Part shown: positions 25,858 to 57,409 of the stretch, one piece after another
Layout of the letters: every line of letters begins with the position of its first letter
Position numbering within the stretch: the stretch's first letter is position 1
Source of the DNA: Puniceicoccales bacterium
GTDB taxonomy: Bacteria > Verrucomicrobiota > Verrucomicrobiia > Opitutales > UBA953
Length of the DNA stretch: 59,173 nt
Direction of reading: 5' to 3'
NCBI GenBank assembly: GCA_031273045.1
Contig: JAISSQ010000115.1
Span: 1-59,173, forward strand
Notes under the pieces: generated by a model
Databases searched by the model: none
The model's input: the letters and a program-made list of their open reading frames with translations, nothing else
Told to the model about the DNA's origin: nothing
Made by a program: the position numbers and the translations under genes

Positions 25858-25983
<126 letters not shown>

Positions 25984-35020: not shown

Positions 35021-35944
35021 ATGCCTGCTCGATACATCCGTGAAGGAATACTCACAAGCGAGCGCGTGAACGCGCTCACGGCCGAGGAGGAGGTCTTCTT
35101 CCGCCGGCTGCTCAACGTCGTGGACGACTATGGTCGCTTCCATGCGGACGCCCGGCTGTTGCGCTCGGCCTGCTACCCGCTGCGCGAGGAGACCACATCC
35201 GCCCAATGCCGTGCGTGGCTCGACGCGCTCATCCGCACCGACCTCGTGCGCGCCTACGTTGCCGACGAGAAGTCATACCTCGAAGTGCGGCGATTCGGAT
35301 GCCAGATGCGTTCGCGCAGCAAGTTCCCCGCCCCGCCGCCCGACGCACCGGACGTCCCCGAGAACCCGCCGCCTCCGCAATCGCGCACGAGTATCGCACA
35401 CTGCGAAACTCCGCCGCCGCCGCCAGCGCCGGAACAAACTCCCGCGCAACCTCCTGCGCCGCAATGGTTACTGCCCGCGAACACCTGCGAGCGACCCGTA
35501 ACCACCTGCGAGCAACCGCTTACTTATAACGATAACGATATACGTATACCCCCCTTACCCCCCAAGGGGGGCACCCGCGCCGCTGCGCTCTCTGACGCAT
35601 TCGCCACGTTCTGGGCGGCCTATCCGCCGACCGGACGCCGCCGGTCCTCGCAGAGCAAGTGCCTCACCCTTTGGCGACGCCTACGCCTCGACGCCCCCGG
35701 CGCCGCCGACGCCGTCCTCGCCGACCTGCGCGCCCGCACTGCCGGTGCCGACTGGACGAAATCCGGCGGCCAATACGTCCCAGCCGCCCATCGCTACCTC
35801 CGCGACAAAATGTTCGCCGACGCCATCCTCTCCTCGCCGCACTCCGCCACCGCGCAAAAAAATTGCGCACCGCGCAACTCCGCCCTCGACGCCGGCACCA
35901 ACCTCGCCGACATCCTCGAAGCCGAAGGCCTCACCGGCGACTGA
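35021..35944 (+). CDS. Putative replication initiation / replisome-organizer protein
   Basis: N-terminal YIREGILTSERVNALTAEEEVFFRRLLNVVDDYGRFHADARLLRSACYPL and C-terminal FATFWAAYPPTGRRRSSQSKCLTLWRRL resemble phage replication organizers. It lies directly upstream of the helicase. Confidence 0.5.
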   Translation: MPARYIREGILTSERVNALTAEEEVFFRRLLNVVDDYGRFHADARLLRSACYPLREETTSAQCRAWLDALIRTDLVRAYVADEKSYLEVRRFGCQMRSRSKFPAPPPDAPDVPENPPPPQSRTSIAHCETPPPPPAPEQTPAQPPAPQWLLPANTCERPVTTCEQPLTYNDNDIRIPPLPPKGGTRAAALSDAFATFWAAYPPTGRRRSSQSKCLTLWRRLRLDAPGAADAVLADLRARTAGADWTKSGGQYVPAAHRYLRDKMFADAILSSPHSATAQKNCAPRNSALDAGTNLADILEAEGLTGD

Positions 35945-36003
35945 CCCTCGCCACGCCAGCCCAATCCAGCCAACCTCACCTCCGCCAACCTCACCACCTC
36001 GCC

Positions 36004-37860
36004 ATGTCGCAACGCTCACGCCAACCCTCCACCTCCGCAACCGCGCAAGATTATCGCTCGCTACGCAACTCCGCCGCCGCCGCCCACCGCGACCCGGACG
36101 ACCGCCTCGAAGACATCCCCGCGACCATCGCCTCGCCTGAATCCGAGACCATCCTCCTCGGCACCGCCATGCGAGGCACCCGCCTCACCGCCGGAGTCGC
36201 CGAGAAAATGCGCGGTGCCGGAATGACCACCGAGTGGTTCAGCACGCACCAGCACCGCCTCATCTGGGACGCCATCTGCGCAGACCTCGACTCCGGAGTC
36301 GTGCCCGAGGCGCACACCGTCGCCGAGCGCCTCATCGCCGCCGGCGACGACCTCGCCACCGCCCACATCGAGACCAGCCGCCTCGTCGAGAGCGTCGGCT
36401 TCGTGCCAAACTGGGAACGCTACTTCGCCATCGTGCGCGACAAGCACCGCCTCCGTCGCCTCGCCGAACGCGCCCTCCTCACGCTCCAATGCGCCGCCGC
36501 GCCCGACGCAGACCCGACCGCCGAGACCGCCCGCGCCGAAGAGGCCTTCTTCACACTCGCCCAATCCGGCCGCCTCGCCGGCGACACCGCCGAACGACTC
36601 GCGCCCACCGTAGCCCGCCTAAAGACCGAGGTCGCCCTCTGGGAACGCGGCGAGGCCGACGCCGCCGCCACCGACCGCATGCTCACGTGGGGACTGCCCA
36701 TCCTCGACAAAAAGTTCACGCGCCTCGACCCCGCGAAAGGCGACCTCGTCATCGGACTGCTCGGAATGTCGAGCCACGGCAAGAGCACTTTCGCACGCCA
36801 CATGGTCGGCGCCAACATCCTCGCTGGAAAGACCGCCGTGGTCTTCTCGCTCGAGACCTCGCGCGACATGTTCGTCCAGCGCCTCGCCGGCCTCTACTCC
36901 TGCTTCGACGTGGCCGTCTTCCGGCGCGAAAATCCTGACGGCTCGCCGCCCTCGCTCACCGCTGCCCGCGCCGCCGTCGCCGAAGCCAGCCGCCGCCGCG
37001 CATCCAGCGGAAACGCCGGTGTCGAGCACATCCAAGCGCTCAAAGGCAACCCGGACCAGACCGAGGCCGCCGCCCGCGCCGTCGCCGTCTTCGACCACAA
37101 CCTCATCTGCTACCGCTCCTGGCTCGACTACCTCGGCACCATTGCCGACGAGCGCCTCCACGTGTTTCAGACCGCCAGCACCATTGACTCCATAATCGCC
37201 AAAATGCGCGAGCAACTCCGCCAGCGCACCGTGCACATGTTCGTCGTGGACTACCTCCAAATTGTGCAGTCCGAAAAGCACCGCGTGGGCAAGGCCGGCT
37301 GGGAAATCCTCAAGGACGTCGCCATGCTCTTCAAATCATTCGCGCAAGAAACTTGCGTGCCTGTCCTCCTCGTTTCGTCCATCACCGACCGAGGTGAGCA
37401 CAACGGCAACACCACGCCATCGTTCACGGACGCGCGCGGCTCGCTCGACATCTCCTACGCCCTCGACCGAGCCATCGTCATCTTCAGACCAGACAACGGC
37501 TCGGACGGATCGCCTCAAGAGCGCAACCGCGCGCTCGGTCTGCCAGTGCTCGTTCGTGTCAAACAAAGCAAGTCGCGCGACCTGCCCATCTGGGAAGAGA
37601 CGCTGCTCTTCCACGGCAAGACCGGTGCCTACTTCCCGCTGCCGCGCAAGGACGCCGACGGCGACACGCCTGCGCCCGGCCGCCCAAAGGGCGTGCGCAA
37701 CGGCATGGGAAAGGCGAACGTCGGCGTGATGCCGCCCGGTCTCACCATCCAGAACGACCCGCTCGCCCCATACCTCGAACCCGACCCGCCGCCACCCGCG
37801 CCGCCGGTGCAGACGACACTCCCGCTCGACCCGCCGCCCGCGGACGAAATCCCATTTTGA
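36004..37860 (+). CDS. dnaB: DnaB-family replicative helicase
   Basis: A DnaB N-domain-like region (PESETILLGTAMRG..) is present, then LTWGLPILDKKF..GDLVIGLLGMSSHGKSTFARHM (Walker A), FVVDYLQIV (Walker B) and a RecA-like C-terminus. In-frame ATG at 36004. Confidence 0.8.
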   Translation: MSQRSRQPSTSATAQDYRSLRNSAAAAHRDPDDRLEDIPATIASPESETILLGTAMRGTRLTAGVAEKMRGAGMTTEWFSTHQHRLIWDAICADLDSGVVPEAHTVAERLIAAGDDLATAHIETSRLVESVGFVPNWERYFAIVRDKHRLRRLAERALLTLQCAAAPDADPTAETARAEEAFFTLAQSGRLAGDTAERLAPTVARLKTEVALWERGEADAAATDRMLTWGLPILDKKFTRLDPAKGDLVIGLLGMSSHGKSTFARHMVGANILAGKTAVVFSLETSRDMFVQRLAGLYSCFDVAVFRRENPDGSPPSLTAARAAVAEASRRRASSGNAGVEHIQALKGNPDQTEAAARAVAVFDHNLICYRSWLDYLGTIADERLHVFQTASTIDSIIAKMREQLRQRTVHMFVVDYLQIVQSEKHRVGKAGWEILKDVAMLFKSFAQETCVPVLLVSSITDRGEHNGNTTPSFTDARGSLDISYALDRAIVIFRPDNGSDGSPQERNRALGLPVLVRVKQSKSRDLPIWEETLLFHGKTGAYFPLPRKDADGDTPAPGRPKGVRNGMGKANVGVMPPGLTIQNDPLAPYLEPDPPPPAPPVQTTLPLDPPPADEIPF

Positions 37861-37907
37861 TTTTCTTCTTGCACGACTGCGGAAAATTCCGCAAACACGC
37901 AACCGTC

Positions 37908-38501
37908 ATGACCGCCCGACGCCAGCAACCTCACGCCACCTCGCCCGCCTCCGCGCGTGGCCGCGGTGTCACCGAGTTGCCGGGCGCGGACACGGCACGA
38001 CACGATGTTGATTCCGCCGCCGGCGGCGCGCTCCTCGCGGAGACGCCGCCGGCGGATTTCCTCGCCCTCACCGGCGGGGCACCATTGAAGCAAGAGAAGC
38101 AAGAAAACCAATCAGCATCGCACACCGACGGCACTGCCGTTTTTCCGCGCTCGCAAGAGCGCGGCACCAATGCGGAGGGGCAGCCGGCGACGGCTGTCCC
38201 TCCATCCATCTCCGCCGCCCCGGTCGCCGCCGGCGAAAGTGCTGTGCCGCCCGTGAACGGGCGGAAAGACGAGCAGCCCACCGCGCCCACCGCGCCCACC
38301 GCGCCGCTCGAAGACGACGCCGCCGTCACCCACGTCTGGCCTAACCCGCGCTTCCTCGGCATCCGCTCGCTCACCGACCCGGACCATCGCGGCACCCTCG
38401 TCATCATCCCGCGCCGCCACGCCGGACTCCGCCGCCTCGGCGCCCGCTGCCGAGTCGTCTGGTCGCACACAGACCCGCGCTTCGCCGCCCTCGCCGACTG
38501 A
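37908..38501 (+). CDS. Hypothetical phage protein (carries one 27-nt hairpin repeat)
   Basis: ORF with start MTARRQQ at 37908, low-complexity in the middle, with a conserved-looking C-terminus (VTHVWPNPRFLGIRSLTDPDHRGTLVIIPRRHAG). Confidence 0.5.
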   Translation: MTARRQQPHATSPASARGRGVTELPGADTARHDVDSAAGGALLAETPPADFLALTGGAPLKQEKQENQSASHTDGTAVFPRSQERGTNAEGQPATAVPPSISAAPVAAGESAVPPVNGRKDEQPTAPTAPTAPLEDDAAVTHVWPNPRFLGIRSLTDPDHRGTLVIIPRRHAGLRRLGARCRVVWSHTDPRFAALAD

Positions 38502-38541
38502 CGCTGTCACCGCCCTTCATCCCTCATCTCAAAATCTTCAA

Positions 38542-38916
38542 ATGTCTCCCCTCCTAAACAAACTCGACATCCCGCGCCCGAAGTGGACGCCCAAGAACGA
38601 CGCCGCGCTACGCCGCGCCCTCGCCAACCTCACCGACAACGAGGACTTCCGCACATACCTCTCGTGGTGCGAAGCCCAGCGCGAGGAAGCCGTCGCCGCG
38701 TCCATTGACTACATCGGCTCGCCCGAACTCGGCGCCGAACGCCTCACGCTCACCGGCAAGGAACTCGGCAAAATCGAACTGCTCGACCACATCGCGAACA
38801 TGATTCTCGGTGCGCTCATCAACCGCACACAACGCCTCGACGCCGCCGGAACCGGCCCAGCCGCCGATGGCGTCGCGCTCGACGCGCCAGTCACCGGCGG
38901 CGCCGCCGCCCACTGA
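38542..38916 (+). CDS. Hypothetical phage protein
   Basis: 124-aa ORF with balanced helical composition (..FRTYLSWCEAQREEAVAASIDYIGSPELGAERLTLTGKELGKIELLDHIANMILGAL..). Confidence 0.6.
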   Translation: MSPLLNKLDIPRPKWTPKNDAALRRALANLTDNEDFRTYLSWCEAQREEAVAASIDYIGSPELGAERLTLTGKELGKIELLDHIANMILGALINRTQRLDAAGTGPAADGVALDAPVTGGAAAH

Positions 38917-39053
38917 CGACGCGCACTCAATTCCGTCGTGGCGACATACGACGGTTGTTGGCCTCGCGCCGGCGGACACCTCCGCCGGCGCGTTTTGCTT
39001 CCCTGCGGAAATTTTCGCAGACCTGAAAAACCGCCGCTACACTCCGCGCCGAC

Positions 39054-40127
39054 ATGAGCACCACAGCACATCCCTCTCCCGCCGCGCAGCCGCCGGCACC
39101 GGCCGCCGCAATCCCGCCCGCGCCCGCCGCGCCCGCCAAGGACATCACCTCCGTCCCCGCCCTCTCCCGCGCCTTCCTCGAAGCCGCCGCCGACCTCGAC
39201 CCCGCCGCCTCCGGCGAAAGTGCTGTGCCGCCCGTTCACGGGCAGGAAGCCGCGCCCGCAGCCACCACTACCGCCACCACCGAGCCACCCACCACCGGCG
39301 AGAGTGCTGTGCCGCCCGTTCACGGGCGGGATGCTGACCCACTCGCCGACCTCGCTCTCCCCTCCGACTCGACCCCCGCCGCCGGAACCACCTCCACCGA
39401 GCCACCCGCCACCACCGAGCCGCCCACCACCGCCGCAAGTGCTGTGCCGCCCGTTCACGGGCGGGATGCCGCGCCCGCCGCCGCCGCCGCCGCCGACCTC
39501 GCCCCCGAAATCGCCGCCGCGGACTACAAGACCCTCGCCCAGGTGCAGGCCTCCGCCGAGCAATGGCTCGACCGCATCGCCGACGTGCTCGCCGGCGATG
39601 GCGACCCCATCAAGGCCGCCGACGGCACCGACATCCCGGACGAGAAACTCAAGGCGTGGCGCGACCAACTCCGCGACACCCTGCGGCGCCAAATCCCCGC
39701 CCGCCTCGGGCAACTCTCCGCAGCCGCCGCCGCCGAACGCGCCCGCACTGCCGCCGCCGAGCACGCCGCAAAGACATTCCCCGCCTACGCCGACGCCAAA
39801 TCCGCCGAGCGCAAGTGGGCGGATGCCTTCCTCGCCGCGCCCGAAAACGCCGCCCTCGCCGCGCATCCGCGCGGCGCCACCCTCGCGCTGCTCATCCGCC
39901 TCGGTCAGAAGGCCTACGCCGCCCAAGCCGCCGCCCAAGCCAGTTCCAGCGCCGGCGGTCACGCCGCCCAAGCCGCCGCCAATCCCAACCTCCCAACGTC
40001 CACCCCCGCCGCCGGCGCCGCAGCCACCGCCGCCGCCAAGCCCGCCAGCCGCACAGCAGCGAAAATGCGCGCCGCCGGAATCACCGACACAAACGCCCTC
40101 GCGACCTACTTCGCCGAGGTTGCGTAG
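39054..40127 (+). CDS. Capsid scaffolding-like protein (three 27-nt hairpin repeats in the N-terminal linker)
   Basis: Ala/Gln/Glu-rich predicted coiled-coil protein immediately upstream of the major capsid gene. 357 aa. Confidence 0.6.
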   Translation: MSTTAHPSPAAQPPAPAAAIPPAPAAPAKDITSVPALSRAFLEAAADLDPAASGESAVPPVHGQEAAPAATTTATTEPPTTGESAVPPVHGRDADPLADLALPSDSTPAAGTTSTEPPATTEPPTTAASAVPPVHGRDAAPAAAAAADLAPEIAAADYKTLAQVQASAEQWLDRIADVLAGDGDPIKAADGTDIPDEKLKAWRDQLRDTLRRQIPARLGQLSAAAAAERARTAAAEHAAKTFPAYADAKSAERKWADAFLAAPENAALAAHPRGATLALLIRLGQKAYAAQAAAQASSSAGGHAAQAAANPNLPTSTPAAGAAATAAAKPASRTAAKMRAAGITDTNALATYFAEVA

Positions 40128-40193
40128 AAGCGGTATTTTCCGCGCTCTCCAATTTCCCCGACAACACACACCAACACCAACACCAATACACCA

Positions 40194-41189
40194 ATGCCGG
40201 AAGCAACCACCTACAACACGCGAGACCGCGAGGACCTCCTCGACATCGTCACCACGCTCTCTCCCCAAGAAACGCCGCTCTTCGCCTCGACGCGCAAGGG
40301 CAAGCGGCCGGGCAACGTCCTGACTGAATGGCTCACCGACTCGCTCGACCTGCCCAACATCGCGGGCAAGATCGAGGGCGAGGACGTCACCAGCCACAAG
40401 AACCCCTTCGCCAATCGCGCGGTCGTGAAGAATCGCGTCCAGACCTTCACCGAGTCGTGGAAGGTCAGCCGCGAGCAAGAAATCATCAGCGGTCCGACCT
40501 CCGTGAAGGCCAACATCGCCGACGCAAAGGCGAAGGCACTCAACCAACTCAAGGTCAACATGGCCGCCGCCCTCGGAAGCGACCAGCAGGCCGTCACCGC
40601 CGCGTCTGGCGTCGCCACGCTCACGCGCGGCCTCGGCGCGTGGGTGAGCGACACGCAGAGCGGCAGTGGCACATCTGACATCCCCGCGTCAGTCCGCACT
40701 CCGTCGAGTTCCATCGTGTCCACGAACGAACTTTCGGAGACGCAATTCAACGGGATTTTGCAATCCGTCTATGAGGCGAGCGGCGCCAAGAAGAACTACA
40801 CCGCCTATCTCGGCCCGACCCTCAAACGCATCGTCACCGAATGGAAGCGCGGTCTGAACGCAATCAAGGACGACTCGCTCGACGTGCCCGTGGATGGCGA
40901 AGTCAAGACCATCGTGCTCGCGGTCGAGATTTACGAAGGCGACTTCGGCGTGGTCAAACTCGTGCCCGACCTCTTCCTCGGCCGTGCAAACAATACCGGT
41001 CTCACCTCGAACAGTCGTTATCGCGGCTACGTGGTCACACCGGAGTTGCTCGAACTCGGCTTCGCCGAGGCGCCGACCGCCGTTGACCAACCAGATCAAG
41101 GCGGCGGCAAGCGTGGCTACTTCGAGGCGATGATGTCCATCCGCTGCCTTCACCCTGCCGGGTTCGGCAAGATTGTGGCCGCCGCGTAA
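40194..41189 (+). CDS. Major capsid protein (HK97 fold, SU10/DUF5309-like)
   Basis: N-terminal YNTRDREDLLDIVTTLSPQETPLFASTRKGKRPGNVLTEWLTD is the hallmark start of this capsid family. 331 aa, following the scaffold gene. Confidence 0.8.
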   Translation: MPEATTYNTRDREDLLDIVTTLSPQETPLFASTRKGKRPGNVLTEWLTDSLDLPNIAGKIEGEDVTSHKNPFANRAVVKNRVQTFTESWKVSREQEIISGPTSVKANIADAKAKALNQLKVNMAAALGSDQQAVTAASGVATLTRGLGAWVSDTQSGSGTSDIPASVRTPSSSIVSTNELSETQFNGILQSVYEASGAKKNYTAYLGPTLKRIVTEWKRGLNAIKDDSLDVPVDGEVKTIVLAVEIYEGDFGVVKLVPDLFLGRANNTGLTSNSRYRGYVVTPELLELGFAEAPTAVDQPDQGGGKRGYFEAMMSIRCLHPAGFGKIVAAA

Positions 41190-41323
41190 ATTTCCCCGCC
41201 ATAGCAGCACGACAGAGAAAGAACGGGATATTCACGGCGCCATGCCGTGACGGCGCGTCCGGTCGCGGGGATGCCGGCGCGCCGATTTCCCGCTCGCTCA
41301 CCCAACCACAGAATTTCGCACCT

Positions 41324-41605
41324 ATGCAATTTTCTTTCACGGATGCAGAAGTCGCCGCCCTCAACCGCAAAATCCGACTCGGCGTCGAGGTCAAGCGACA
41401 CCTCCACCGCTCTCGGCAGCAGCGCATCGCGCGCGCCTCGGAGCGCCTCGGCGGTCATCGCGTGGACGGACTCGGCCAACTGCGCGCCCGCATAGACCTC
41501 GACACATTCCTGCGCTGGCAAATCGCCGAACCCGGCATCTGGGAAGACCCCGCCAGCGTCAAGGCCTTCCTCCGCGACAACGACGACATGCGGGTCAAAG
41601 GATGA
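41324..41605 (+). CDS. Hypothetical small phage protein
   Basis: 93-aa ORF between the capsid and membrane-protein genes. It stops immediately before the CTGACCA heptamer array. Confidence 0.5.
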   Translation: MQFSFTDAEVAALNRKIRLGVEVKRHLHRSRQQRIARASERLGGHRVDGLGQLRARIDLDTFLRWQIAEPGIWEDPASVKAFLRDNDDMRVKG

Positions 41606-41610
41606 ATTCA

Positions 41611-41644
41611 CTGACCACTGACCACCGACCACTGACCACTGACA
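41611..41644 (+). repeat. CTGACCA heptamer array (5 units)
   Basis: CTGACCA CTGACCA CCGACCA CTGACCA CTGACA. The stretch 41606-41640 is the exact reverse complement of 27246-27280 inside int. Confidence 0.9.
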
Positions 41645-42607
41645 ATGCTCCGCCACGCTGAAAACAACTGGATTACTTTCGCGTTCGCCGGCGCCGCCGG
41701 CGGAACCGTCTCCCAATTTCTCAAGAGCGGATTGGAGTGGGTGGTGCTCATCGGAAGCGCCATCTCTGCGCTCGCCGGCGCTGTTCTCGCCGTCGCCAAA
41801 ATCTACCGCAAGTTTCGCGCGTGGCGCATCGCCGCGCGTCTCGCCACCTCCACCGGTGGCACAATTTCGACAGGAGCAGAAGCCGAGAAGTTTTTACCGA
41901 GGTTTTCTTCTCGTGGCATTCCGGCGGAAAGCAAGTGGTCCGCCCCTGTCGTCCTTTTCATCTGCGCAATACTATCCTCCGGTTGCGCAGGGTGCTCCTA
42001 CCTGCACGACGTCCCACCCACTAAAGGCGGCACCTACACCGTCGAGACGTGGGGGATTGGCAGTGCACAGGAACAAGGGCAAAGGGATAAGGGCAAAGGG
42101 CAAAGGGCAGAAAGCGCACCTCTAAAGCGGGAGACCTTCACCCAAGGTGACAACGCCACCGGTCGCGCACGCTTCACGCGCGCTCCCGATGGCGCGGTAA
42201 CCCTCTCCCTCTCCGCGAACGCGCCCAACGCCGTCACCATTCCGCCCGTCCCCGACTACACCAAATACATCGCCCTCGTCGTCTCGCTGATGCTCGCTGC
42301 GCTCGGCGCCGCGCTCTGCGGATACGGCTACGCCGGCGTCGGCTCGCGTCTCTTCCTTGCCGGCGCCGGCGGTGCCGTCCTCTCCCTCACAGTCACCGAC
42401 TACGGCTGGCTCTATGCAGCAGCCGCTGTCGCCATCGGCCTCTACGTAGCATGGGAGAAGTTGCGCGCCTACGCCGCCGGCGTGAGCGAGAGCAGCGAGC
42501 CGGACACGTGGCTCGACCGCCTCGTCGGCGCCGCGAACGGCGCCTCCGCCTCCACCGCCTCCACCGCCGCCCCCACCGCCTCCGCGCCACTGACCACCGA
42601 AACATAA
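41645..42607 (+). CDS. Multi-TM membrane protein with internal lipobox (possible holin/spanin-like lysis function)
   Basis: TM segments include WITFAFAGAAGG and WVVLIGSAISALAGAVLAVA. An internal VVLFICAILSSGCAGC lipobox-like string and C-terminal TM helices (IALVVSLMLAALGAALCGYGYAG..) are present. It carries the in-frame 51-nt GGGCAAA element. Confidence 0.55.
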   Translation: MLRHAENNWITFAFAGAAGGTVSQFLKSGLEWVVLIGSAISALAGAVLAVAKIYRKFRAWRIAARLATSTGGTISTGAEAEKFLPRFSSRGIPAESKWSAPVVLFICAILSSGCAGCSYLHDVPPTKGGTYTVETWGIGSAQEQGQRDKGKGQRAESAPLKRETFTQGDNATGRARFTRAPDGAVTLSLSANAPNAVTIPPVPDYTKYIALVVSLMLAALGAALCGYGYAGVGSRLFLAGAGGAVLSLTVTDYGWLYAAAAVAIGLYVAWEKLRAYAAGVSESSEPDTWLDRLVGAANGASASTASTAAPTASAPLTTET

Positions 42608-42705
42608 TTTGCCGCCGCTGCCGGGGAATGCTCGCGAGTTGCATGTGGTCATGTCTGCGAGAACCGGCGCGGCGGCTCCTATTTCCAGCACCAACCTCGC
42701 CTCCC

Positions 42706-45700
42706 ATGTCCGCGCCCTCACTCACACAGTCCGACGAATACCAGCGCGAACTCGCGCGCCAGCGCACCTTCCGCGAGATGTGGCAGAACGGCGTGCCAGC
42801 CGGCTCGCGTGTCGGAATCCCGCTCCCCGACGGCACCACCGAAATCACCGACCTCCCCTCGCCACCGCCGGAATTCGCCACCGACCACCAGCCAATGGAC
42901 ACTGGCCACTTGGAGCGAAGCGGCTCTCCGGACCCGCGCGACCTCTTCGGTCTCACCGGCGGCGGAACCCTCCGCGACCCGGTCGCCGACCACCGCGCCC
43001 GCTACGCCGACCTCACCGACGACCAATACCGCGCGCGGATGGAGTCGCAGGACGCGACCATCGCCCACTCCATCGCCAACCGCGCCGCGACCGGAGTGAC
43101 CGGCGCGCTCATCGGAATCGGGCGGAAGGTCCTGCCCGTCCTCGCCACCCCGCTCGACGCCGTCGCGCCCGGCACCTCGGACGCCATCCGTCTCCGCTAC
43201 GACGACGCCCGACGCGAACTCGACGACCTCAAGACCGCCCATGCGCCCTACTCGCAACTCTCGCCGTTCTGGGGAGACACCGTCGAGGGCGTCGCCGACA
43301 GCATGACCAAGATGCTCGCCCTGCGCGCCGCCGGCGGCGGAATGAAGACGATGGCGACCGGCTTCGGTATCGACGCCGCCACCGACGCCTACGAGCGCGG
43401 CCGGCAGGACGGTCTCGACCACAACCGCGCGCTGCTCTACGGAGCGGCTCACGGCGCAGCCGAAGCCGGCGTGATGTCCATCTTCGACCGCCTTGGTCTC
43501 GGCGGCGCCGAGCGCGCCGTCATCGACGCCTTCGGTGCCTCCGCTGCCGCCGGCGTCCGAACCGTCAAGGACGTGCTCAAGGCCGCCGCCAAGCAAACCA
43601 TTCTTGGTGAGGTGCCGGAGGAACTCGTCACTTCCGCCGTGCAGAAAATCGCCGACGACATCGCCCTCAACGACAGCAGCACGTGGGAGGAAACCATCAA
43701 AAGCACTCTCGCACAGACGCTGCTCACCATGGGCATCGTCAACGCCAAGCCCACCGGCGCCGCCGCCCTCAACGACCTCATCAGAAAGGTTGAAGGAGGA
43801 AGGATGAAGGATGAAACAGCAAGTGGTGCCACAGGGGGCGGCACCGCCGCCGCCGGCACCGCCGCCGCCGGAACAACCGCTGCCGCCCCAGCCGGCACCG
43901 CAAGTGCTGTGCCGCCCATGCATGGTCGGTCCCCTGCCTCCCCTACCGCCGGCTACGATATCCTCCGCCCAAACGCCGCAGCAGCCACTCCCGCCACTCC
44001 CGCCGCGCCCGCCGCGCCCGCGCCCAATCCAGTTCCAGCGCCGGCGTTCACGCCGGCACAAACACCGGCACCACCGCCGCCACCCACCACCACCACACCC
44101 ACCACCGCCTCTGACCGCGCCGCCCAGCAGCCCGCGCCACCGGCACCGCCGCGCGCCGCCAATCCCATCACAGTCACTTGGGACCAATCTAAACTCTCCG
44201 ACGAAGAGAAGACCGCGCAGAACCAATTCATCTCCGAACTCAACGCGCGAACCGATGAGGAGAACGACGCGCTCTACGACGCCGCCGCAAAAGACGGAAA
44301 CCACACCGGTGTCTATATCAACGCCGACACGGCACGCTCACTGTTCAGCGGATGGAAAGACAGCGACGCAAACCGCCGGAAGTGGAAGGACGATGTCACC
44401 TACCAAGTCGCCGCCGCCTATGTCGCCAATCGCTTCCGCCGAGAGTTGGAGCGGACAAAAGGGCGAGGCAGCGTCACCTTCCTCGCCGGCGGTGCCGGTA
44501 GCGGCAAGGGAAGCGCGAACGTCAAGGGAACAGACGCCGACATCGTCTTCGACTCAAACTTCGCCGGCAGTCAGAACCCTGACGGCACACTCAACTTCGA
44601 GAAGCAGGAAGCCCTCATCGCCGCCGCCCGCGCAGCCGGAAAGAGAGTCAGTATTATCTACGTCCACGTGCCTATAGAACAGGCAGCGGCACAAGCGCAC
44701 TCACGGTTTGAAAAAACTGGACGAGACGTTGAGCCGGAGCACCAAGGAGGTCTCCACTACCGAGCGCAACAGACGTTTCTCCATTTTCTCAACTCTTACC
44801 TGAACGGAAATCAAAACCACATTTCCTCTATCAAAATCTATGACAACGGACATCCACTCGGAGAAGGTGTCTGGATAGGACAAGAGGAAGCAAAGAATGT
44901 CCCTGAAAGCGCAGAGAATAACTTCCTCGCTCATGCTGCGCTTGACTTCATGAGTGAACGAGGGAACATCCTTTACCGCGATGAACACGACCCAAAGACA
45001 AGAGCCAGAAACACAAGAAGTGACTTGGCAGGAACTGGAGCGACAGGGGCGGTTTCGCGAAGCCAACGCCCTTCTCCTTCGCCAGATGAACGAGGGAATC
45101 CGCCAGTCGGTGGAACGCCTACAAGCGATGCCGGTGAAGTATCCGCCGGCGAAGTAGCCACAAACCAATCTCCTGATTCACGCGCTAATTCTGTCGACGG
45201 CTCCGCCCTATCGGATCCCGGTATCAGTGGCGGTGAATCAGGAACCACTTCCTCAACTGCGGAAAATTCCGCAAACGAGCAAGACACCACCGCCGCACCC
45301 GCCGAAAGTGCTGTGCCGCCCGTTCACGGGCGGGGCGTCTCAGCCCGTCCGGGCGGCACCCCATCTTCCGATGCGCCGGTGGACTCCCCAAAGTTCACGC
45401 CCGCACCCGCCGGAAAAGTGCCGTGGCTCGACCAGCGAAGCGAAACCCAATCCGGCCGCCAACTGCGCCAGCGAATCGCCGCCGACACCAAGGGCGCCAA
45501 ATACGGCGCGCCATCCGTCTTCACCTACCTGCGAGAACAACTCGGCGGTCTGCTCACCCTCAAATCCCGCAGCCAGACATCACGCAAACACCCCGCCAAC
45601 TACCACCCAGACAGCGACACCATCTTCACCCGCAGCGGCGCCGCCAACGAGGTCAACACGCACGAGGTCGGGCACGCAATCCACGCCCGGCTTACCGAAC

Positions 45701-48700
45701 TCGGCTGGACGTTCCCGCCGAACGTCAACATCCACGACTTCACGCGCCTCGCCAGCAATCGCATGTCCTACGCCTCCGCAGACAACGCGAGCGAAGCCGT
45801 CGCCGAGTGGGTGAGGCGCTACATCAACGACCCGGTCTCCGTTGCCGGACATCCGCTCACCAAATCCATTGAGAATTTCCTGGTCACTCACGACAGCCGC
45901 GGAATCCAAATCATCAACACCCTGCGCGACGCCGCCCGCGCCCAGAACGAGACCTACCGCCGGCCGCTGCTCGCCCAATTCCACGCACTCAACGCCGACC
46001 AATCAACGCCGCAGAAATCGTGGCACGAGACGCTCGCCGCAGTCCCAGGGCAAATGCACTCGCTCATCACTGCGCTCATCTCGCGCGGCCACGCGTGGCG
46101 CGCCCTCGAAGCCCGCGCATTCCGCGCCATCCGACGCGCCGCCGCGAACGACGACCTCGGTCTCGCCGCCGCCCGCGCTTGGCGAGCAGACGCGGGCAAC
46201 TCCCTCGGAAACGCATACCAAGAGACGCTTCTCGCCAAGGGGCAAGTCACCACCGGATTCCTCGGCAAGGGCGGCCTGACGGTCTTCGACGACAAGGGGC
46301 AGAAGGTCGTCGTCCATCCGAAATCCTACGCCGAAATCATCAGCGCGATTCCGGGCGAGCAGTGGCAGGACTTCGAGGCCTACGGATGGGCGCGCACGAT
46401 GCTCGCCCGCTACCGCGCGAAAGCACTCGACTACCCGGGGCGAAACAGCGGATGGGGACCGCAGCGGCTCGCACGGATGGTCAAGGAGGCAGAAGCAGCC
46501 AATCCGACTTGGGGCGAGACCTACAAGCAGGTCGAGTCGCTGATGGACTCGCTGCTCAAACTCGACGTGCGCACAGGTCTCGTGACTGGCGAGGAATACC
46601 AGCGCATCCGCGAGGCCTACGAGGACTACTGGCCGCTGCCGCGACTCATCCGGCGCGACATGGGGCAGACAGGCACGAGCGTCGGCGGCGCCGCCGGCCT
46701 CGAAAGCAAGTCGGGTGTCCATCGCGCCTACGGCAGCGAGGAGGCCGTCCTGTCGCTGCACGAGGCGGTCGAGCGACGGATGTGGGCGAGCGTCAAGGCC
46801 TACGCTCATGAGAAATTCAAGCGGACGCTCGTGAAGACCGTCGCCGACCTCGCCAAGCGCGACGGTCTCGACCGCGAGACGCGCGCGTCGTTCGCCCAAC
46901 TCTTCACGCCTCTGAAGCCCGAAAAAAGCACGGTTGCGAAAATTTCCGCATCTATGCAAGCGGACATCATCGCAAAGGCCGCCAAGGATCTCGGCCTAAC
47001 GGTCACCGACGAGAAGACAGGACAGCGGCGCGCGGTCACCGCCGAGGACATCACCGTGCTCGGTCTCGACGGCATCCCCATCACAAAGACCGACAAGCCG
47101 ACCGACTTCACGGTGATGTCCGTCGCGAACGGCACACCGACACCGGACTTCTATCTCATCACCGACCCTGCGCTACTGTCACTCATCGCCAACAACCCGA
47201 TGCCCAAGGACGGCGCCGCCGAACGCGCCATCGCGTTCGCGAAGAGTATCTTCTCTCCCTACATCCGCGAGATGAAGCAACTGGCGACCCAAAACGCCGC
47301 CTTCATCATCAAGAACGTCGTAGCCGACGCGTTCAACACCATGCTGACCGGGCGCGGAAAGCGGTCATTCCTGCCGTTCGCAAATCACGTCCGGGGAATC
47401 ATCGGCCGGATGCGCGGCGAGACCACCGGCATCGCGACGGACACAGAGATGCTGTCGCACGAACTTTCCGGCGAGACCGACCTCGCCGCCGCAATCAATC
47501 GCTCGGCGTGGGAGGAGATTTGGAAGAGCAACTGGTTCCGCTTGGAGGGTAAACCCAAGTTGCAGCAGGCGGCCGCCATCATCGGGAACATTTTGATGTT
47601 CCCGTTCAAGGTGTCGCACACGGCTCTGGTATTCACGGGGCAACGCGCCGCCGCGACATTCACCGAGGCGCTCGCGCGCGAGGGTGCGGCGCTCAACGAA
47701 CGCGACCGTGGCGGCAGCGCCGCCAGTAGCGCGAAGCAATACGCGCTCTCGTCCGGCGACTTCGGCGAACGCCCGGGAAATGCGACGTGGTCGGAATTCA
47801 CCACGCTGCTGCCATTCTTCAATCCGATGTTGCAGGCAGGTCGCCAAGAGTGGGGCAAACTCACTGACCCGGACCCGGCAGTGCGCCGAGCCACCGCACT
47901 CAAAATCGCCGTCGGCGGTCTCGCGCTGCCAACGCTCGCGTGGGCACTCGCGCGGCTGGTCTTCCCCGATGACGACGAGGAGAAGCGCAAGGCGGCAGAA
48001 CGCGACCCAGCGGAGAAGGCGCGCTGGGCGCAGGTCGGTCCGGTGCGATTCCCGTTCCCGCGCGGCGCGATGGGCGCCGCCGCCGCCACCGTCTGGAACA
48101 CGCTCGACGAGGTGGTGCTCGGAATGAAGACGCGCCAGAAGACCAGATTCGCCAAGGCCGTCCTCGCCGAAGCAGTCACCATCTCCGGCACGTGGTCAGA
48201 CCTCATTCCGTGGGGCGTCAAGCAAGCGGTCGAAGTCGCAAGCAATCACTCGTTCTGGTCGGACAAGCCAATCGTTCCGCTCTACCTCGAACGCCTCTCC
48301 GAGCCGGACTTGCAGGTGCGCGCGGACACGCCTCGCCTCTATCGCTCAATCGCCTCGCTCTTCCACGCCTCGCCGCTCGTGGTCGAGCACATGTTCCGCC
48401 AGACCTACGGCCGCCAACTGTCCTACGCCATTGAGGTCGCAGACAAATTCCTTGCCGGCGAAAACATCGCCAAGACAGCCGGCGCCGGCCGCGCGATGCC
48501 ACTCATCGGCTCGTTCGTGGCGACTGACCCGAAGACGTGGTCGAGCGCATCCGTCCAAGACCTGCAAGAAATTGAAAAGCGATACGACGCGCTCAACGCC
48601 CGGCTGCGCTCGGTCGGCTTCGAGGCCGGTGTCCGGGGACTGCTCACGTGGGACCCGGACAGCGCGCCGTGGCGACTGGGCGAAAGAGAGGTTGCAGACA

Positions 48701-49029
48701 TCACCGCGCTCCAAAATGTCGTTGGTCAGGCATACCGGATGCACGTGATGAGCAACGCCGTCGAGAAACTCGCCACCGAAGCGAGCAAACTCAAGCGCGC
48801 CGGATTCCGCCTCGCTGCCGAAGACGCCGAAAAGCGAATGACCACGCTCGCCATCCGCGTCGCCGCCGACCACTACGACGCCTCCTCCCGCGCCCTCGAC
48901 GAGGCAATGCGCCTCGAAGCGGCGACCCGCGCAACATTCTCCGAACTCTCCGAATTCTCCCGGAACTCCAACGCCACCCGCGAAGAGCAGGAACGCCAGC
49001 GAGAAAAAAGGATGAAGGATGAAGGATAA
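42706..49029 (+). CDS. Giant phage polyvalent-type protein (2,107 aa): zeta-toxin-like P-loop kinase + HExxH metallopeptidase-like + long helical C-terminal modules
   Basis: The Walker A FLAGGAGSGKGS (about 44478-44513) sits in a ~200-aa zeta/AAA_33-like region. NTHEVGHAIHARL has its HExxH at 45661-45675. About 1,100 aa of helical region follow. The start MSAPSLTQ at 42706 was chosen, since the upstream track sequence is R-rich junk. Confidence 0.7.
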   Translation: MSAPSLTQSDEYQRELARQRTFREMWQNGVPAGSRVGIPLPDGTTEITDLPSPPPEFATDHQPMDTGHLERSGSPDPRDLFGLTGGGTLRDPVADHRARYADLTDDQYRARMESQDATIAHSIANRAATGVTGALIGIGRKVLPVLATPLDAVAPGTSDAIRLRYDDARRELDDLKTAHAPYSQLSPFWGDTVEGVADSMTKMLALRAAGGGMKTMATGFGIDAATDAYERGRQDGLDHNRALLYGAAHGAAEAGVMSIFDRLGLGGAERAVIDAFGASAAAGVRTVKDVLKAAAKQTILGEVPEELVTSAVQKIADDIALNDSSTWEETIKSTLAQTLLTMGIVNAKPTGAAALNDLIRKVEGGRMKDETASGATGGGTAAAGTAAAGTTAAAPAGTASAVPPMHGRSPASPTAGYDILRPNAAAATPATPAAPAAPAPNPVPAPAFTPAQTPAPPPPPTTTTPTTASDRAAQQPAPPAPPRAANPITVTWDQSKLSDEEKTAQNQFISELNARTDEENDALYDAAAKDGNHTGVYINADTARSLFSGWKDSDANRRKWKDDVTYQVAAAYVANRFRRELERTKGRGSVTFLAGGAGSGKGSANVKGTDADIVFDSNFAGSQNPDGTLNFEKQEALIAAARAAGKRVSIIYVHVPIEQAAAQAHSRFEKTGRDVEPEHQGGLHYRAQQTFLHFLNSYLNGNQNHISSIKIYDNGHPLGEGVWIGQEEAKNVPESAENNFLAHAALDFMSERGNILYRDEHDPKTRARNTRSDLAGTGATGAVSRSQRPSPSPDERGNPPVGGTPTSDAGEVSAGEVATNQSPDSRANSVDGSALSDPGISGGESGTTSSTAENSANEQDTTAAPAESAVPPVHGRGVSARPGGTPSSDAPVDSPKFTPAPAGKVPWLDQRSETQSGRQLRQRIAADTKGAKYGAPSVFTYLREQLGGLLTLKSRSQTSRKHPANYHPDSDTIFTRSGAANEVNTHEVGHAIHARLTELGWTFPPNVNIHDFTRLASNRMSYASADNASEAVAEWVRRYINDPVSVAGHPLTKSIENFLVTHDSRGIQIINTLRDAARAQNETYRRPLLAQFHALNADQSTPQKSWHETLAAVPGQMHSLITALISRGHAWRALEARAFRAIRRAAANDDLGLAAARAWRADAGNSLGNAYQETLLAKGQVTTGFLGKGGLTVFDDKGQKVVVHPKSYAEIISAIPGEQWQDFEAYGWARTMLARYRAKALDYPGRNSGWGPQRLARMVKEAEAANPTWGETYKQVESLMDSLLKLDVRTGLVTGEEYQRIREAYEDYWPLPRLIRRDMGQTGTSVGGAAGLESKSGVHRAYGSEEAVLSLHEAVERRMWASVKAYAHEKFKRTLVKTVADLAKRDGLDRETRASFAQLFTPLKPEKSTVAKISASMQADIIAKAAKDLGLTVTDEKTGQRRAVTAEDITVLGLDGIPITKTDKPTDFTVMSVANGTPTPDFYLITDPALLSLIANNPMPKDGAAERAIAFAKSIFSPYIREMKQLATQNAAFIIKNVVADAFNTMLTGRGKRSFLPFANHVRGIIGRMRGETTGIATDTEMLSHELSGETDLAAAINRSAWEEIWKSNWFRLEGKPKLQQAAAIIGNILMFPFKVSHTALVFTGQRAAATFTEALAREGAALNERDRGGSAASSAKQYALSSGDFGERPGNATWSEFTTLLPFFNPMLQAGRQEWGKLTDPDPAVRRATALKIAVGGLALPTLAWALARLVFPDDDEEKRKAAERDPAEKARWAQVGPVRFPFPRGAMGAAAATVWNTLDEVVLGMKTRQKTRFAKAVLAEAVTISGTWSDLIPWGVKQAVEVASNHSFWSDKPIVPLYLERLSEPDLQVRADTPRLYRSIASLFHASPLVVEHMFRQTYGRQLSYAIEVADKFLAGENIAKTAGAGRAMPLIGSFVATDPKTWSSASVQDLQEIEKRYDALNARLRSVGFEAGVRGLLTWDPDSAPWRLGEREVADITALQNVVGQAYRMHVMSNAVEKLATEASKLKRAGFRLAAEDAEKRMTTLAIRVAADHYDASSRALDEAMRLEAATRATFSELSEFSRNSNATREEQERQREKRMKDEG

Positions 49030-49126
49030 GGGATGAAATGCGTTCCAAGTGCTGTGCGCCCATTCGCGAGTGCTGTGCCGCCCATTCATGGGCGGAAGGC
49101 GCCGCCCATGGAGCGCCGACTTGCGT

Positions 49127-49162
49127 TTCGCGAACTGCGCATTCACGCAATACTATCGCCAC
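49127..49162 (+). promoter_or_regulatory. Conserved phage promoter module TTCGCG-N18-TACTAT-N6-ATG (copy 2)
   Basis: TTCGCG at 49127-49132, TACTAT at 49151-49156, ATG at 49163. Confidence 0.55.
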
Positions 49163-49906
49163 ATGAGCACGCGCTTCGTGAAGAAACCCGCGACAGTCGC
49201 CGGCGCGACAGGACCGCAAGGCCCGCAAGGACCGCAAGGCCCGCAAGGACCCCAAGGCGAAACCGGACCGCAAGGACCGCAAGGACCCCAAGGACCCCAA
49301 GGCGAAACCGGACCGCAAGGACCCCAAGGACCCCAAGGCGAAACCGGACCGCAAGGACCCCAAGGCGAACCGGGCACCGGTTCCGGCAGCGGCGCCGGCC
49401 TCCTCTACAAATCCATCTTCCTCACCGAGGAATGGACTGACGCGAATCAATACGCTCTAACCGGTCAGTGGGCGGCCGAATGGGAGGCGGAGGACTGGGT
49501 GCCGGAGATCGTCTGGGATCTCGATGGCGTCATGCTGAACTCGCGTGCCTACGCGCTACGCATTGACGGTCCGTCGCCAAAGTGGGGTTCGTTTCTCATA
49601 GATAATTACGGCGGAAATGGCCGAAACATGAATCTGCCGGCCCATGCGTCCACGAATCGTGTGATGGACCGAACGTACGACATCAACGCCCCCCAAGGTT
49701 CGGTCTCTGCGAACGACCAGACCAACTACTATCGGTCGCTGCAAGACAAGTGGTGCGACATTCTGTGCCCATCCCTCGGCAAATTGCTGCGCATCCACAT
49801 CGTTCGCGACTATTGGTCGCCGCTGTCATATTGCGTCCCGTCCAGCAACGTGACACGCCCGCACACGGCAGCACGCCTCGAATTCTTCAACGTGGAGGTC
49901 CGCTAA
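49163..49906 (+). CDS. Collagen-like (G-X-Y) repeat fibre protein
   Basis: [40 protein letters not shown]...[12 protein letters not shown] gives about 21 uninterrupted GXY triplets (49199-49390), followed by a ~170-aa globular C-terminus. Confidence 0.8.
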
Positions 49907-49907
49907 T

Positions 49908-52088: not shown

Positions 52089-52178
52089 AGGAAGAAGGAT
52101 AAGGGATAAGGGTAGTTTCCGGCGGCAAAGCCGTGCATTCCACCCTTATCCCTTTGCTCTTTGCCCTTTGCCTTCTCC
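52087..52178. repeat. Heptamer-armed stem-loop element (same family as 20299-20464)
   Basis: The arm GAAGGAAGAAGGATAAGGGATAAGGGTAG is followed by the loop TTTCCGGCGGCAAAGCCGTGCATTC and the arm CACCCTTATCCCTTTGCTCTTTGCCCTTTGCC. The loop is about 75% identical to the loop at 20407-20430. Confidence 0.8.
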
Positions 52179-52238
52179 GCTAACAGTTCGCTAACTTTTC
52201 GCTACCACTTTGCTAAAAGTTCGCTAACACTTCGCGCG
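52179..52238 (+). promoter_or_regulatory. Array of TTCGCTAAC-type boxes at 11-bp phasing
   Basis: Boxes start at 52187 (TTCGCTAAC), 52198 (TTCGCTACC), 52209 (TTTGCTAAA), 52220 (TTCGCTAAC) and 52231 (TTCGCGCGT), with CGCTAAC at 52179. The array ends 2 nt before the ATG at 52241. Confidence 0.6.
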
Positions 52239-52240
52239 TC

Positions 52241-52480
52241 ATGACCACCAAGACCTTCCTCGCCATCGCCGCCGGCGCAATCGCGCTCGCCTTCGCCGCC
52301 GCCGGCGGAGCAATGCTCTCGCTCGGAACAATCGGCCGCTGGCTCAACGACGCCTCGCTGCCGGCGTGGCCGCGGGCGGTCGCCGAATGGGACGAGCGAA
52401 TCGGCTGCGCGCTGCTCGCCATCGGCCTCGCCGGAAACATCATCACCCTCATCGCGCTCGCCCTGCGCCGCGCGGAATAG
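52241..52480 (+). CDS. Small two-TM membrane protein
   Basis: 79 aa with two hydrophobic helices (FLAIAAGAIALAFAAAGGAMLSL and CALLAIGLAGNIITLIALAL). Confidence 0.6.
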   Translation: MTTKTFLAIAAGAIALAFAAAGGAMLSLGTIGRWLNDASLPAWPRAVAEWDERIGCALLAIGLAGNIITLIALALRRAE

Positions 52481-52490
52481 CCGCCGCCAA

Positions 52491-52709
52491 ATGCCCGCAC
52501 GCCTCACCCCAGCCGCCACGCCCGACACACTCATCACCGCGATGCTGCCGCTGATGGCGGCGCGCGCAGAGCCGGAGCGCGCCTACTCACGGATGGAAAT
52601 CGCCGAGTTCTGCGGGGTCGATGATTACCAGATCATGCTCATCGAACGCCGAGCCATGGCGTCCATCCGCCGCGCAATCGGCGAGCCGGAACGCGCGGGC
52701 AAGTTTTAG
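52491..52709 (+). CDS. Sigma-70 region-4-like / LuxR-type HTH protein (candidate late-gene activator; small terminase not excluded)
   Basis: 72 aa. YSRMEIAEFCGVDDYQIMLIERRAMASIRRAI fits the region 4.2 HTH pattern (S..EIA...G.s...V..i..RA...lR). Confidence 0.5.
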   Translation: MPARLTPAATPDTLITAMLPLMAARAEPERAYSRMEIAEFCGVDDYQIMLIERRAMASIRRAIGEPERAGKF

Positions 52710-52810
52710 ATGGCGCGCCAAGTGCTGTGCCGCCCGCTCATGAAGCGCCGACTTTCAATTCGGCTCGGCGGCGCTGCGGCGCAGCCGCCTCGCTAACACT
52801 TCGCGAACTT

Positions 52811-52846
52811 TTCGCGAAGTGCGCATTCACGCAATACTATCGCCAC
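52811..52846 (+). promoter_or_regulatory. Conserved phage promoter module TTCGCG-N18-TACTAT-N6-ATG (copy 3)
   Basis: TTCGCG at 52811-52816 (preceded by a second TTCGCGAAC at about 52800), TACTAT at 52835-52840, ATG at 52847. Confidence 0.55.

Positions 52847-57321: not shown

Positions 57322-57409
<88 letters not shown>

Follow-up and report, generated by a model that had tools for sequence, protein, structure and literature searches.

A 27-nucleotide hairpin repeat translated within linkers of prophage proteins, and its probable origin in an Opitutus-type REP doublet

The stretch of DNA analysed here, positions 1 to 59,173 of contig JAISSQ010000115.1 of a Puniceicoccales bacterium (assembly GCA_031273045.1), will be called the window. 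It contains a prophage in which a 27-nt hairpin repeat is found in eight copies, six of them inside open reading frames (ORFs), where they are translated as the peptide SAVPPVHGR or a close variant. As judged from its sequence, the repeat is probably a DNA-level element comparable to the repetitive extragenic palindromes (REPs) and to the Rickettsia palindromic elements (RPEs), namely the degenerate core of an Opitutus-type REP doublet lying in frame in linkers of prophage proteins. The shared peptide is best read as a by-product of the DNA and not as a protein signal.

The prophage is bounded by an 88-nt perfect direct repeat (25896-25983 and 57322-57409), the left copy of which overlaps the 5′ half of a tRNA-Lys gene (25858-25933, minus strand) together with the sequence upstream of it. 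The two have the appearance of attL and attR sites, and the prophage that they delimit would measure ~31.4 kb; it is uncommon for a tRNA gene to be used for integration on its 5′ side. All copies of the 27-nt repeat lie between the two, i.e., within the prophage, and specifically in its structural-gene region (38.2-52.7 kb). The prophage genes with an assigned product are the following:

26793-28076, minus strand: integrase
28172-30064: terminase
35021-35944: replication initiator
35659-37860: DnaB helicase
39054-40127: scaffold-like gene
40194-41189: SU10-type capsid protein
42706-49029: polyvalent protein of 2107 aa, with a Zeta-toxin domain and an HEVGH motif
49163-49906: collagen-like gene
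49908-52088: portal-like gene

When the window was scanned with the 27-nt sequence AGTGCTGTGCCGCCCGTTCACGGGCGG, exact matches were found at 39303, 39438 and 45307, while one mismatch was observed at 39219, two at 38238 (where the centre is TGAA) and at 49069, four at 43903 and six at 52721. These eight copies, plus one partial copy of the head at 49048, span 38238-52747 and are all on the plus strand; shuffled sequence gives no match to the 27-mer. The repeat is non-random and its edges are sharp. The copies are:

38238-38264, plus strand: copy in ORF 37908-38501; reads ESAVPPVNGRK; centre GTGAAC
39219-39245, plus strand: first copy in the scaffold-like gene; reads SAVPPVHGQEA; its one mismatch breaks one stem pair
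39303-39329, plus strand: second copy in the scaffold-like gene; exact, with ~32 nt of upstream flank in common with the third
39438-39479, plus strand: third copy in the scaffold-like gene; exact, followed by a decayed continuation into a second REP unit; reads VPPVHGRDAAPA
43903-43929, plus strand: linker 1 of the polyvalent gene, which separates module 1 from the Zeta-toxin module; M-type copy, CCCATGCATGG; reads SAVPPMHGR
45307-45359, plus strand: linker 2 of the polyvalent gene, exact copy; an additional 3′ arm, CGGGCGGCAC at 45350-45359, is able to pair with GTGCCGCCCG
49048-49122, plus strand: extragenic copy A, made of a partial head (49048-49068), an M-type copy (49069-49095) and a CATGGAGCGCCGACTT module
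52721-52773, plus strand: extragenic copy B, in which the head and 5′ arm are followed by a nested hairpin module of 29 nt, GCGCCGACTTTCAATTCGGC, that replaces the loop, and then by the 3′ arm CGGCGGC

A preliminary description of this DNA had proposed a real 27-nt hairpin repeat with further copies outside genes, and both claims are borne out (the extragenic copies being those at 49069 and 52721). It had also counted six copies in one reading frame in four ORFs; the six copies and the common frame stand, but the ORFs are three, namely 37908-38501 with a single copy, 39054-40127 with three, and the polyvalent gene, the true start of which is 42706, with two. The genic copies sit in proline/alanine/threonine-rich linkers. 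Since the three scaffold copies have flanking sequence in common and look like a local tandem duplication, the number of independent events in coding sequence falls to about four, and the coincidence of a shared frame becomes weaker, (1/3)^3 = 0.04.

The two extragenic copies lie 40 nt (A, after the polyvalent gene) and 12 nt (B) past stop codons, and ~70-100 nt upstream of leaderless late promoters, that of copy A being 49126-49156. A CAATACTAT box is present at 30128, 49148, 52832, 53928 and 56046, with the ATG of the late gene exactly 6 nt after the box, and the mRNAs of these late genes are probably leaderless, to judge from this spacing. The promoter-like box has the form TTCGCGAA...GCGCAATACTAT, and it also occurs at 41967 and, on the minus strand, at 29033. 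The one at 41967 lies within ORF 41645-42607, which may really be two genes.

Codon usage bears directly on the nature of the repeat. In the confident phage genes, AGT, GCT, GTT, GGG and CGG account for only 3.6 %, 3.9 %, 5.3 %, 11 % and 11 % of their synonymous sets, respectively, and, given the peptide, the codon string of the repeat has P ~ 3e-8 under the codon usage of these genes. Codon usage rules out an independent encoding of the peptide in the different genes. The argument from rare codons holds, and the homologues described below, which are devoid of the peptide, agree with it.

Relatives of the three carrier proteins were sought by exhaustive HMMER search, and none of those found bears the motif; in particular, no SAVPPVHGR-type peptide with divergent codons was found in the homologues P0139, P0233, P0147, P0177 and L010_10961. 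For the scaffold homologues P0147 and P0177, the alignment does not start before residues 148/155, just past the third copy, and P0177 is without the entire N-terminal repeat region. The polyvalent homologue P0139 (38 % identity) aligns directly after the 45307 copy and through to the C-terminus, with EYATPSRG replacing the copy, and L010_10961 has only the domain downstream of the copy in common with the product of gene 37908, the homology beginning 24 aa after it. The copies of the 27-mer are all in linkers of the carrier proteins that cannot be aligned (the BLAST gap at 45307 is only 3 aa). The alignment to homologues that had been suggested earlier finds the peptide missing from all of them, but a clean 9-aa indel of the kind described for RPEs is not demonstrable for the 27-mer. 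The closest phage by capsid protein (L002, 57 % identity) has no scaffold gene between its DnaB and capsid genes, and its ORF downstream of the capsid gene is unrelated to the polyvalent N-terminus. Word-indexed protein searches with the scaffold and polyvalent queries gave self-matches only, and blastn found no DNA homology of the repeat regions to the contigs of the relative.

REPs are tagged palindromes of 20-40 bp with a stem of 5-13 bp and a loop of 2-20 nt, and the verrucomicrobium Opitutus terrae has the highest count of intragenic GTAG-type REPs (PMC3733652, Di Nocera et al. 2013, BMC Genomics 14:522). Its GTAG-19 units read GTGVPPV and HGRDARAT (PMC3733652, Additional file 3), M-type variants read GMGVPPM and MGGTPMPR, and tail-to-tail dimers, with partners 1-2 bp apart, read GTGVPPV...HGRDARAT (PMC3733652). 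As GTGVPPV and HGRDARAT are the opposite strands of one palindrome, all codon positions are fixed, and the unit CACGGGCGGGACGCCCGTGCCAC, i.e., GTGG-CACGGGCG-TCC-CGCCCGTG, could be worked out from the peptides that have been published for the two strands. This reconstructed unit is present, exactly, in eight IMG/VR contigs, with a CCAC tag in 6/8 and as an inverted pair in one. The contigs L012-L018 hold 1-2 copies each at 57-69 % G+C, and in L013 the inverted pair is ~100 nt apart.

Positions 7-27 of the repeat, together with the GATGCC that follows in some copies, correspond to GTGCCGCCCGT.CACGGGCGG(GATGCC). On this correspondence, the 21-nt core would consist of the 3′ arm of one REP unit and, directly adjoining it, the 5′ arm of a second unit in inverted orientation. 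Identity to the model of the O. terrae dimer core is 23-25/27 for the V-type copies and 20-21/27 for the M-type copies, and the 39438 copy continues as HGRDAAPA, so that 28/35 positions match the model of the tail-to-tail dimer. In size and shape the repeat falls within the range of REPs (a 27-nt unit, a 7-bp all-G/C stem and a 4-nt loop), and its 23-25/27 identity to the inner arms of the GTAG-19 dimer relates it to a described family. The window holds both V-type and M-type variants, as does O. terrae. The G>A/C>T change seen in the copies at 43903 and 49069, which had been described as stem covariation, is real, but it matches the V-type/M-type polymorphism of the REP family and need not be a local compensation. 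Likewise, the flipped loop reported for 38238 is there (GTGAAC versus GTTCAC), but a single mirror-position substitution appears sufficient to derive this centre from an ancestral perfect palindrome, GTGCAC; the centre of the 43903 copy, ATGCAT, is still perfect. By our tally of the supplement of PMC3733652, about half of the intragenic GTAG-19 units in housekeeping proteins of O. terrae are translated in the phase seen for the copies here and, therefore, the common frame is no evidence of a peptide function.

The two sets of repeats are alike in being short GC-rich palindromes with the core GTGCCGCCCGT / CACGGGCGG and with V- and M-type variants, in their in-frame VPPV and HGR(DA), in their siting in linkers or at protein ends, and in the tail-to-tail arrangement with almost no spacer. 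By contrast, only the inner arms are present here, with the stem polarity reversed relative to a single REP unit, the GTAG/GTGG tag is missing, there is an extra head AGTGCT, and one orientation is used. The siting in a prophage, at about one copy per 2 kb, is also different, with no host copies and no REP-associated tyrosine transposase (RAYT) seen in 59 kb.

These observations suggest a simple course of events. The 27-mer would descend from a REP family of the host lineage. Its core, GTGCCGCCCGT.CACGGGCGG, would be the inner arms of a tail-to-tail doublet of units of the form GTGG-CACGGGCG-loop-CGCCCGTG; abutted without spacer, these arms would pair together and form the hairpin. One such degenerate doublet, bearing the head AGTGCT, would have been copied to at least five or six places of the prophage, either through the action of a RAYT-type HUH/Y1 transposase of the host on hairpins of single-stranded DNA or by short-patch recombination or template switching. 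Intergenic landings would have become parts of larger hairpins after stop codons, where a REP-like effect on the RNA (stabilisation of 3′ ends or insulation) may be expected. Genic landings would have persisted only where 27 extra bases are harmless, that is, in the Pro/Ala/Thr-rich disordered linkers at domain boundaries, and they would be translated there as (S-A-)V-P-P-V-H-G-R(-D-A), the commonest phase of intragenic O. terrae REPs.

Four results carry this explanation: the identity at the DNA level, the homologues without the peptide, the relatedness to a REP family, and the in-frame insertion of sibling repeats both here and in a related phage (see below). The presence of both V- and M-type variants, the other intergenic modules that the host flank has in common with the prophage, and the conservation of the stem also speak for it. 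Together with codon usage, they also support the earlier preference for a DNA/RNA-level element over a conserved peptide.

Several observations weigh against the descent from a REP doublet. All copies have a single orientation, while REPs usually occur as inverted pairs. No GTAG, GTGG or CGTC tag adjoins the stem on either strand, the head is AGTGCTGTG, and its AGTGCT, which is conserved yet lies outside the O. terrae unit, is not accounted for by the dimer model. A canonical full O. terrae REP unit or peptide was not found in the window, the host flank (27.6 kb) has no copy, and no RAYT or HUH transposase was seen among those prophage ORFs, a subset of all, that were submitted to Pfam or PHROGs. 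The mobile elements of Pseudomonas, prophages included, are reported to be “REP deserts” (PMC3390384), against which eight copies in 14.5 kb are unusually dense. In 185,579 species-representative genomes, IMG/VR and JGI metagenomes, the exact repeat is absent, with chance matches only. Lastly, the 5′ 15 nt, AGTGCTGTGCCGCCC, are unchanged in 8/8 copies (five synonymous positions and both non-coding copies included), so that all 7-9 substitutions fall in the 3′ 12 nt; with (12/27)^7 ~ 0.003, the head may have been selected or homogenised, and neither is expected of a purely selfish relic. Two further searches were negative, as the late-promoter motif had no match in viral contigs and a megablast of 35-50 kb had none among GenBank phages.

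The hairpin itself is well conserved, the 7-bp stem being paired in 47/49 cells (95.9 %), compared with 35-49 % in slid controls. In copy A the element forms the tip of a 75-nt hairpin (folding z = -2.9), in copy B a nested hairpin replaces the loop and the 3′ arm follows it, and the 45307 copy has a second 3′ arm 17 nt downstream; in the latter two, pairing is kept in a nested form. The copies in coding sequence fold no better than shuffles because of their G+C-rich flanks. Rfam covariance models gave no match at E <= 1 over 37800-53000, and a covariance-model scan of the repeat with the filters off revealed no extra or diverged copies (a weak match at 57556 is unconvincing).

Several known kinds of element were considered and rejected. 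An intrinsic terminator does not fit, as there is no T-run and no copy appears in the terminator scan (the phage terminator at 38965-38992 has TTTT). A miniature inverted-repeat transposable element would need terminal inverted repeats of 15-30 bp and a length of 70-300 bp, and the unit here is 27 nt with no consistent flank duplication. An array or solitary repeat of the CRISPR type is contradicted by the spacing (84 and 135 nt, then kilobases) and by the copies within ORFs. For a -1 frameshift signal, the upstream sequence is without a conserved slippery heptamer; for an internal leaderless start at the in-frame GTG, the promoter is absent and copy A does not share the frame of the gene that follows it. 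The target hairpin of a diversity-generating retroelement was discarded for want of a template/variable repeat pair and of a reverse transcriptase, an integron attC or dif-like site because of size and symmetry, and a pac/cos site or origin iterons because the copies are scattered across 14.5 kb.

Other short repeats are embedded in genes of this prophage as well:

50422-50473, plus strand: purine-heptad element, in frame in the portal-like gene 49908-52088; reads EEQGQKDEGKGQRAESAP
44029-44081, plus strand: sister repeat family, head and hairpin GCCGGCG-TTCA-CGCCGGC
43786-43816, plus strand: purine-heptad segment in the polyvalent ORF; reads RKVEGGRMKDE
45256-45276, plus strand: ACTGCGGAAAATTCCGCAAAC, 21 nt, in the polyvalent ORF, 30 nt before a repeat copy; the same 21 nt form the palindrome that precedes the ATG at 37908

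The first of these is the most informative. The purine-heptad element (AAGGGCA / AAGGGAT) at 50422-50473 has a twin at 42069-42120, and the two encode EEQGQ.D.GKGQRAESAP in two unrelated ORFs. A 17-aa gap in the alignment with the orthologue L010_1190 (49 % identity) coincides exactly with 50422-50473, and this alignment proves it, at the level of sequence, a clean in-frame insertion relative to the orthologue. Hence, the in-frame insertion of RPEs, which had been named as the closest precedent, finds support in this sibling repeat. In the sister family, a 41-nt segment beginning with the hairpin is identical at 44041-44081 (polyvalent linker) and 27843-27883 (minus strand, integrase gene), where the frames differ (PAFTPAQTPAPP versus PGVHAGTNTGTTAA), and a diverged copy lies at 39940-39969. 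The segment at 43786-43816 matches, exactly and over at least 14 nt, a host intergenic repeat at ~20310 (AAGGTTGAAGGAGGAAGGATG is common to both by eye); other 14-mers of this block recur elsewhere, and the block resembles the 3′ end of the polyvalent gene (49007-49034).

In the closest relative (contigs L002 and L010, from the same sample), the polyvalent protein P0139 has two inserts relative to the protein of the window, of 24 aa and 41 aa. These inserts, NYELRITNYEL and GTNGTNGTNGT, are nucleotide-identical to the intergenic composite repeats of that phage. The composite repeat is ~250 nt long, lies between most genes, and is built of AATTACG heptads, GCGGTTTGGCGGTGGGTGCTGCTGGCG, GGGACGAAT nonamers and CACTAAC heptads, at the following sites:

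L010: 3299-3619, 7562-7610, 8362-8447, 11262-11584, 12741-12973
L002: 3624-3884, 5101-5371

From these comparisons, the in-frame embedding of short repeats appears to be general in this phage lineage.

Additional repeats were observed in the window. The palindrome TGCGGAAA(A/T)TT(C/T)CGCA occurs at 37878-37893, 39004-39019, 40129-40144, 45258-45273 and 46935-46950, that is, 14-50 nt upstream of genes 37908, 39054 and 40194 and twice within the polyvalent ORF, and its role may be that of an operator or middle-promoter element. CACTGAC heptads form a 36-nt block that is the same at 41605-41640 (upstream of gene 41645) and 27246-27281 (minus strand, integrase ORF); it reads NSLTTDHRPLTT in the integrase, at residues 266-277 of 427, in the second half of the protein. 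The host flank and the prophage share purine-heptad terminator arms and a GAGCGCCGACTT hairpin module, the latter at 20491 (plus), 20593 (minus) and 49111 (plus), with a variant at 52744. In the host intergenic region 20294-20745, arms of ~120 nt made of GGATGAA/GGATAAG heptads and their complement flank two inverted GGAGCGCCGACTTTCAAGTCGGC copies and a T-run, and the whole looks like a large bidirectional terminator-like palindrome. Near-identical pieces of its arms are found in the prophage at 30066, 49007 and 52094.

Among the alternatives, it is rather unlikely that the repeat is a cis-acting signal of the phage, possibly a co-opted REP, in which some protein of the phage or of the host recognises the invariant 15-nt head and the hairpin, either as DNA or as RNA. 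Candidates would be a “stoperator”-type roadblock, nut/put-like antitermination, RNA processing or stability, or a strand-specific nick, sited where coding tolerates it. The unvarying head agrees with such a role, synonymous positions and non-coding copies included, as do the sense orientation of all copies and their restriction to the structural-gene region, the architecture of a single-stranded head followed by a hairpin, the placement of the extragenic copies between stop codons and late promoters inside larger hairpins, and a density far above that of other viral contigs with canonical REP (1-2 per locus). Against it, promoters of the same class at 30128, 53928 and 56046 have no copy, related phages are without the 27-mer, Rfam gives no match, there is no T-run, and the folding z-scores of the copies in coding sequence are unremarkable. 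Moreover, with the loop of copy B replaced and the stem at 43903 broken, no single structure is strictly kept; nor was a binding protein identified. A related proposal, which we also hold unlikely, is that a REP-derived head-plus-hairpin was domesticated by the temperate phage as a selected strand-specific signal at domain boundaries and gene ends; it could serve as a site for a repressor or roadblock, for RNA processing, or as a joint at which polyvalent and scaffold modules are swapped by recombination in frame.

The last of these candidates has also been considered by itself, and is quite improbable. The 27-mer would then mark, and perhaps promote, the joining of modules, so that intergenic regions that came to be read through became linkers; in a variant, short shared patches would permit the in-frame swapping of polyvalent-protein modules. 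The copies do lie at compositional and module boundaries. The G+C content of third codon positions (GC3) in ORF 37908-38501 is 0.75 upstream of the copy versus 0.91 downstream, and along the polyvalent gene it is 0.87 in module 1, 0.59-0.69 in linker 1, 0.64 in the Zeta-toxin module, 0.43 before linker 2 and 0.81 in module 3. Homology to relatives sets in directly past the copies and does not extend to the N-terminal parts, linker 1 has the layout of the true 3′ end of its gene (...RMKDE, purine heptads and an M-type copy), and linker 2 holds the promoter-region palindrome of gene 37908. However, intergenic copies captured independently would have random frames, and recombinogenic direct repeats in one genome would delete essential genes. 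Since no other genome has the 27-mer, no exchange partners are seen, and insertions tolerated only in linkers predict the same placement. Furthermore, the siblings at 50422 and in P0139 are insertions inside conserved domains and not fusion joints.

Very improbable is a functional peptide, SAVPPVHGR serving as cleavage site of the HExxH metallopeptidase within the polyvalent protein or as a capsid-targeting or cargo-loading peptide common to scaffold and packaged proteins, with concerted evolution keeping the copies identical. The six copies in one frame, located in disordered linkers of proteins that are scaffold-like or polyvalent (and probably internal to the virion), the HEVGH ~100 aa after the 45307 copy and the invariance of S-A-V-P-P in protein would fit it, but the copies use the same codons although these are rare, two of the copies are not in genes, variation is seen at each of V, H and R (PPMHGR, PPVNGR, PPVHGQ), the peptide is missing from the five homologues listed above, and the phase shared by about half of the intragenic O. 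terrae units in unrelated housekeeping proteins needs no function. Neither this protease or capsid-targeting peptide nor an RNA pause hairpin, both of which had been put forward earlier, obtained positive support.

As a REP/RPE-like repeat, the 27-mer can be compared with other known systems. The classic RPE-1, with ~100-150 bp, is much longer, and RPEs are CGTC-tagged and chromosomal elements of an obligate intracellular bacterium. They are like the 27-mer in being palindromic DNA of selfish appearance within ORFs, which adds a segment to the translated protein and is tolerated where this segment falls in a surface or linker region (PMC3733652). Indels relative to homologues, another feature of RPEs, are seen here for the sibling repeats of the window and of the related phage. 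REPINs are REP doublets forming hairpins (Bertels and Rainey 2011, PMC3116915). The resemblance lies in a hairpin unit made of an inverted pair of REP arms and in within-genome amplification with near-identical copies. REPINs measure ~60-110 bp, consist of two full REPs plus a spacer, are extragenic and are associated with a RAYT gene, whereas neither the two full REPs with spacer nor the RAYT association is seen for the 27-mer. The stoperators of cluster A mycobacteriophages, which Brown et al. are said to have described in EMBO J in 1997, are reportedly 13-bp sites without a hairpin, mostly intergenic and bound by repressor. Both they and the 27-mer comprise about a dozen asymmetric, nucleotide-conserved sites dispersed through a prophage in one orientation to transcription; the 27-mer differs in having a hairpin and in being mostly genic, and repressor binding is known for stoperators only.

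Some observations concern other parts of the window. The region 44191-45306, i.e., the Zeta-toxin module and the linker following it, has a GC3 far below that of the flanking parts of the polyvalent gene (see the values above), which suggests that the module may have been acquired recently. At 49192-49392, ~20 collagen-like G-P-Q / G-E-T triplets derive from 9-nt tandem repeats (Pfam Collagen, E = 8e-9), and the product of the collagen-like gene is probably a fibre. Finally, one open frame of more than 6,700 codons occupies 1-20159 on the minus strand and runs off the contig end; it has a GC3 of 0.86 and recurring GGAIYA and FxxN motifs that resemble the polymorphic membrane protein (Pmp) repeats of the Planctomycetes-Verrucomicrobia-Chlamydiae superphylum, and Pfam gave no match on two 1,500-aa slices of it.

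The finding gives a puzzling “peptide motif” an identity at the level of sequence, and cautions against reading peptides encoded by repeats in phages as functional. It describes a prophage densely colonised by a REP-derived repeat and by other short repeats, some of them present in the host flank, with structural, integrase and portal-like genes being hit. REP-type host repeats in phage and prophage contigs may be commoner than assumed, and private repeat families common to phage and host could link phages to uncultured hosts of Verrucomicrobia type (the phylum being deduced here). Such repeats may supply the disordered linkers and module junctions that are typical of polyvalent proteins. If selection acts on the head, the phage would have co-opted a selfish repeat and, if the element has indeed been domesticated as a signal, repeat families of the host would be the raw material for phage linkers, fusions and regulatory sites.

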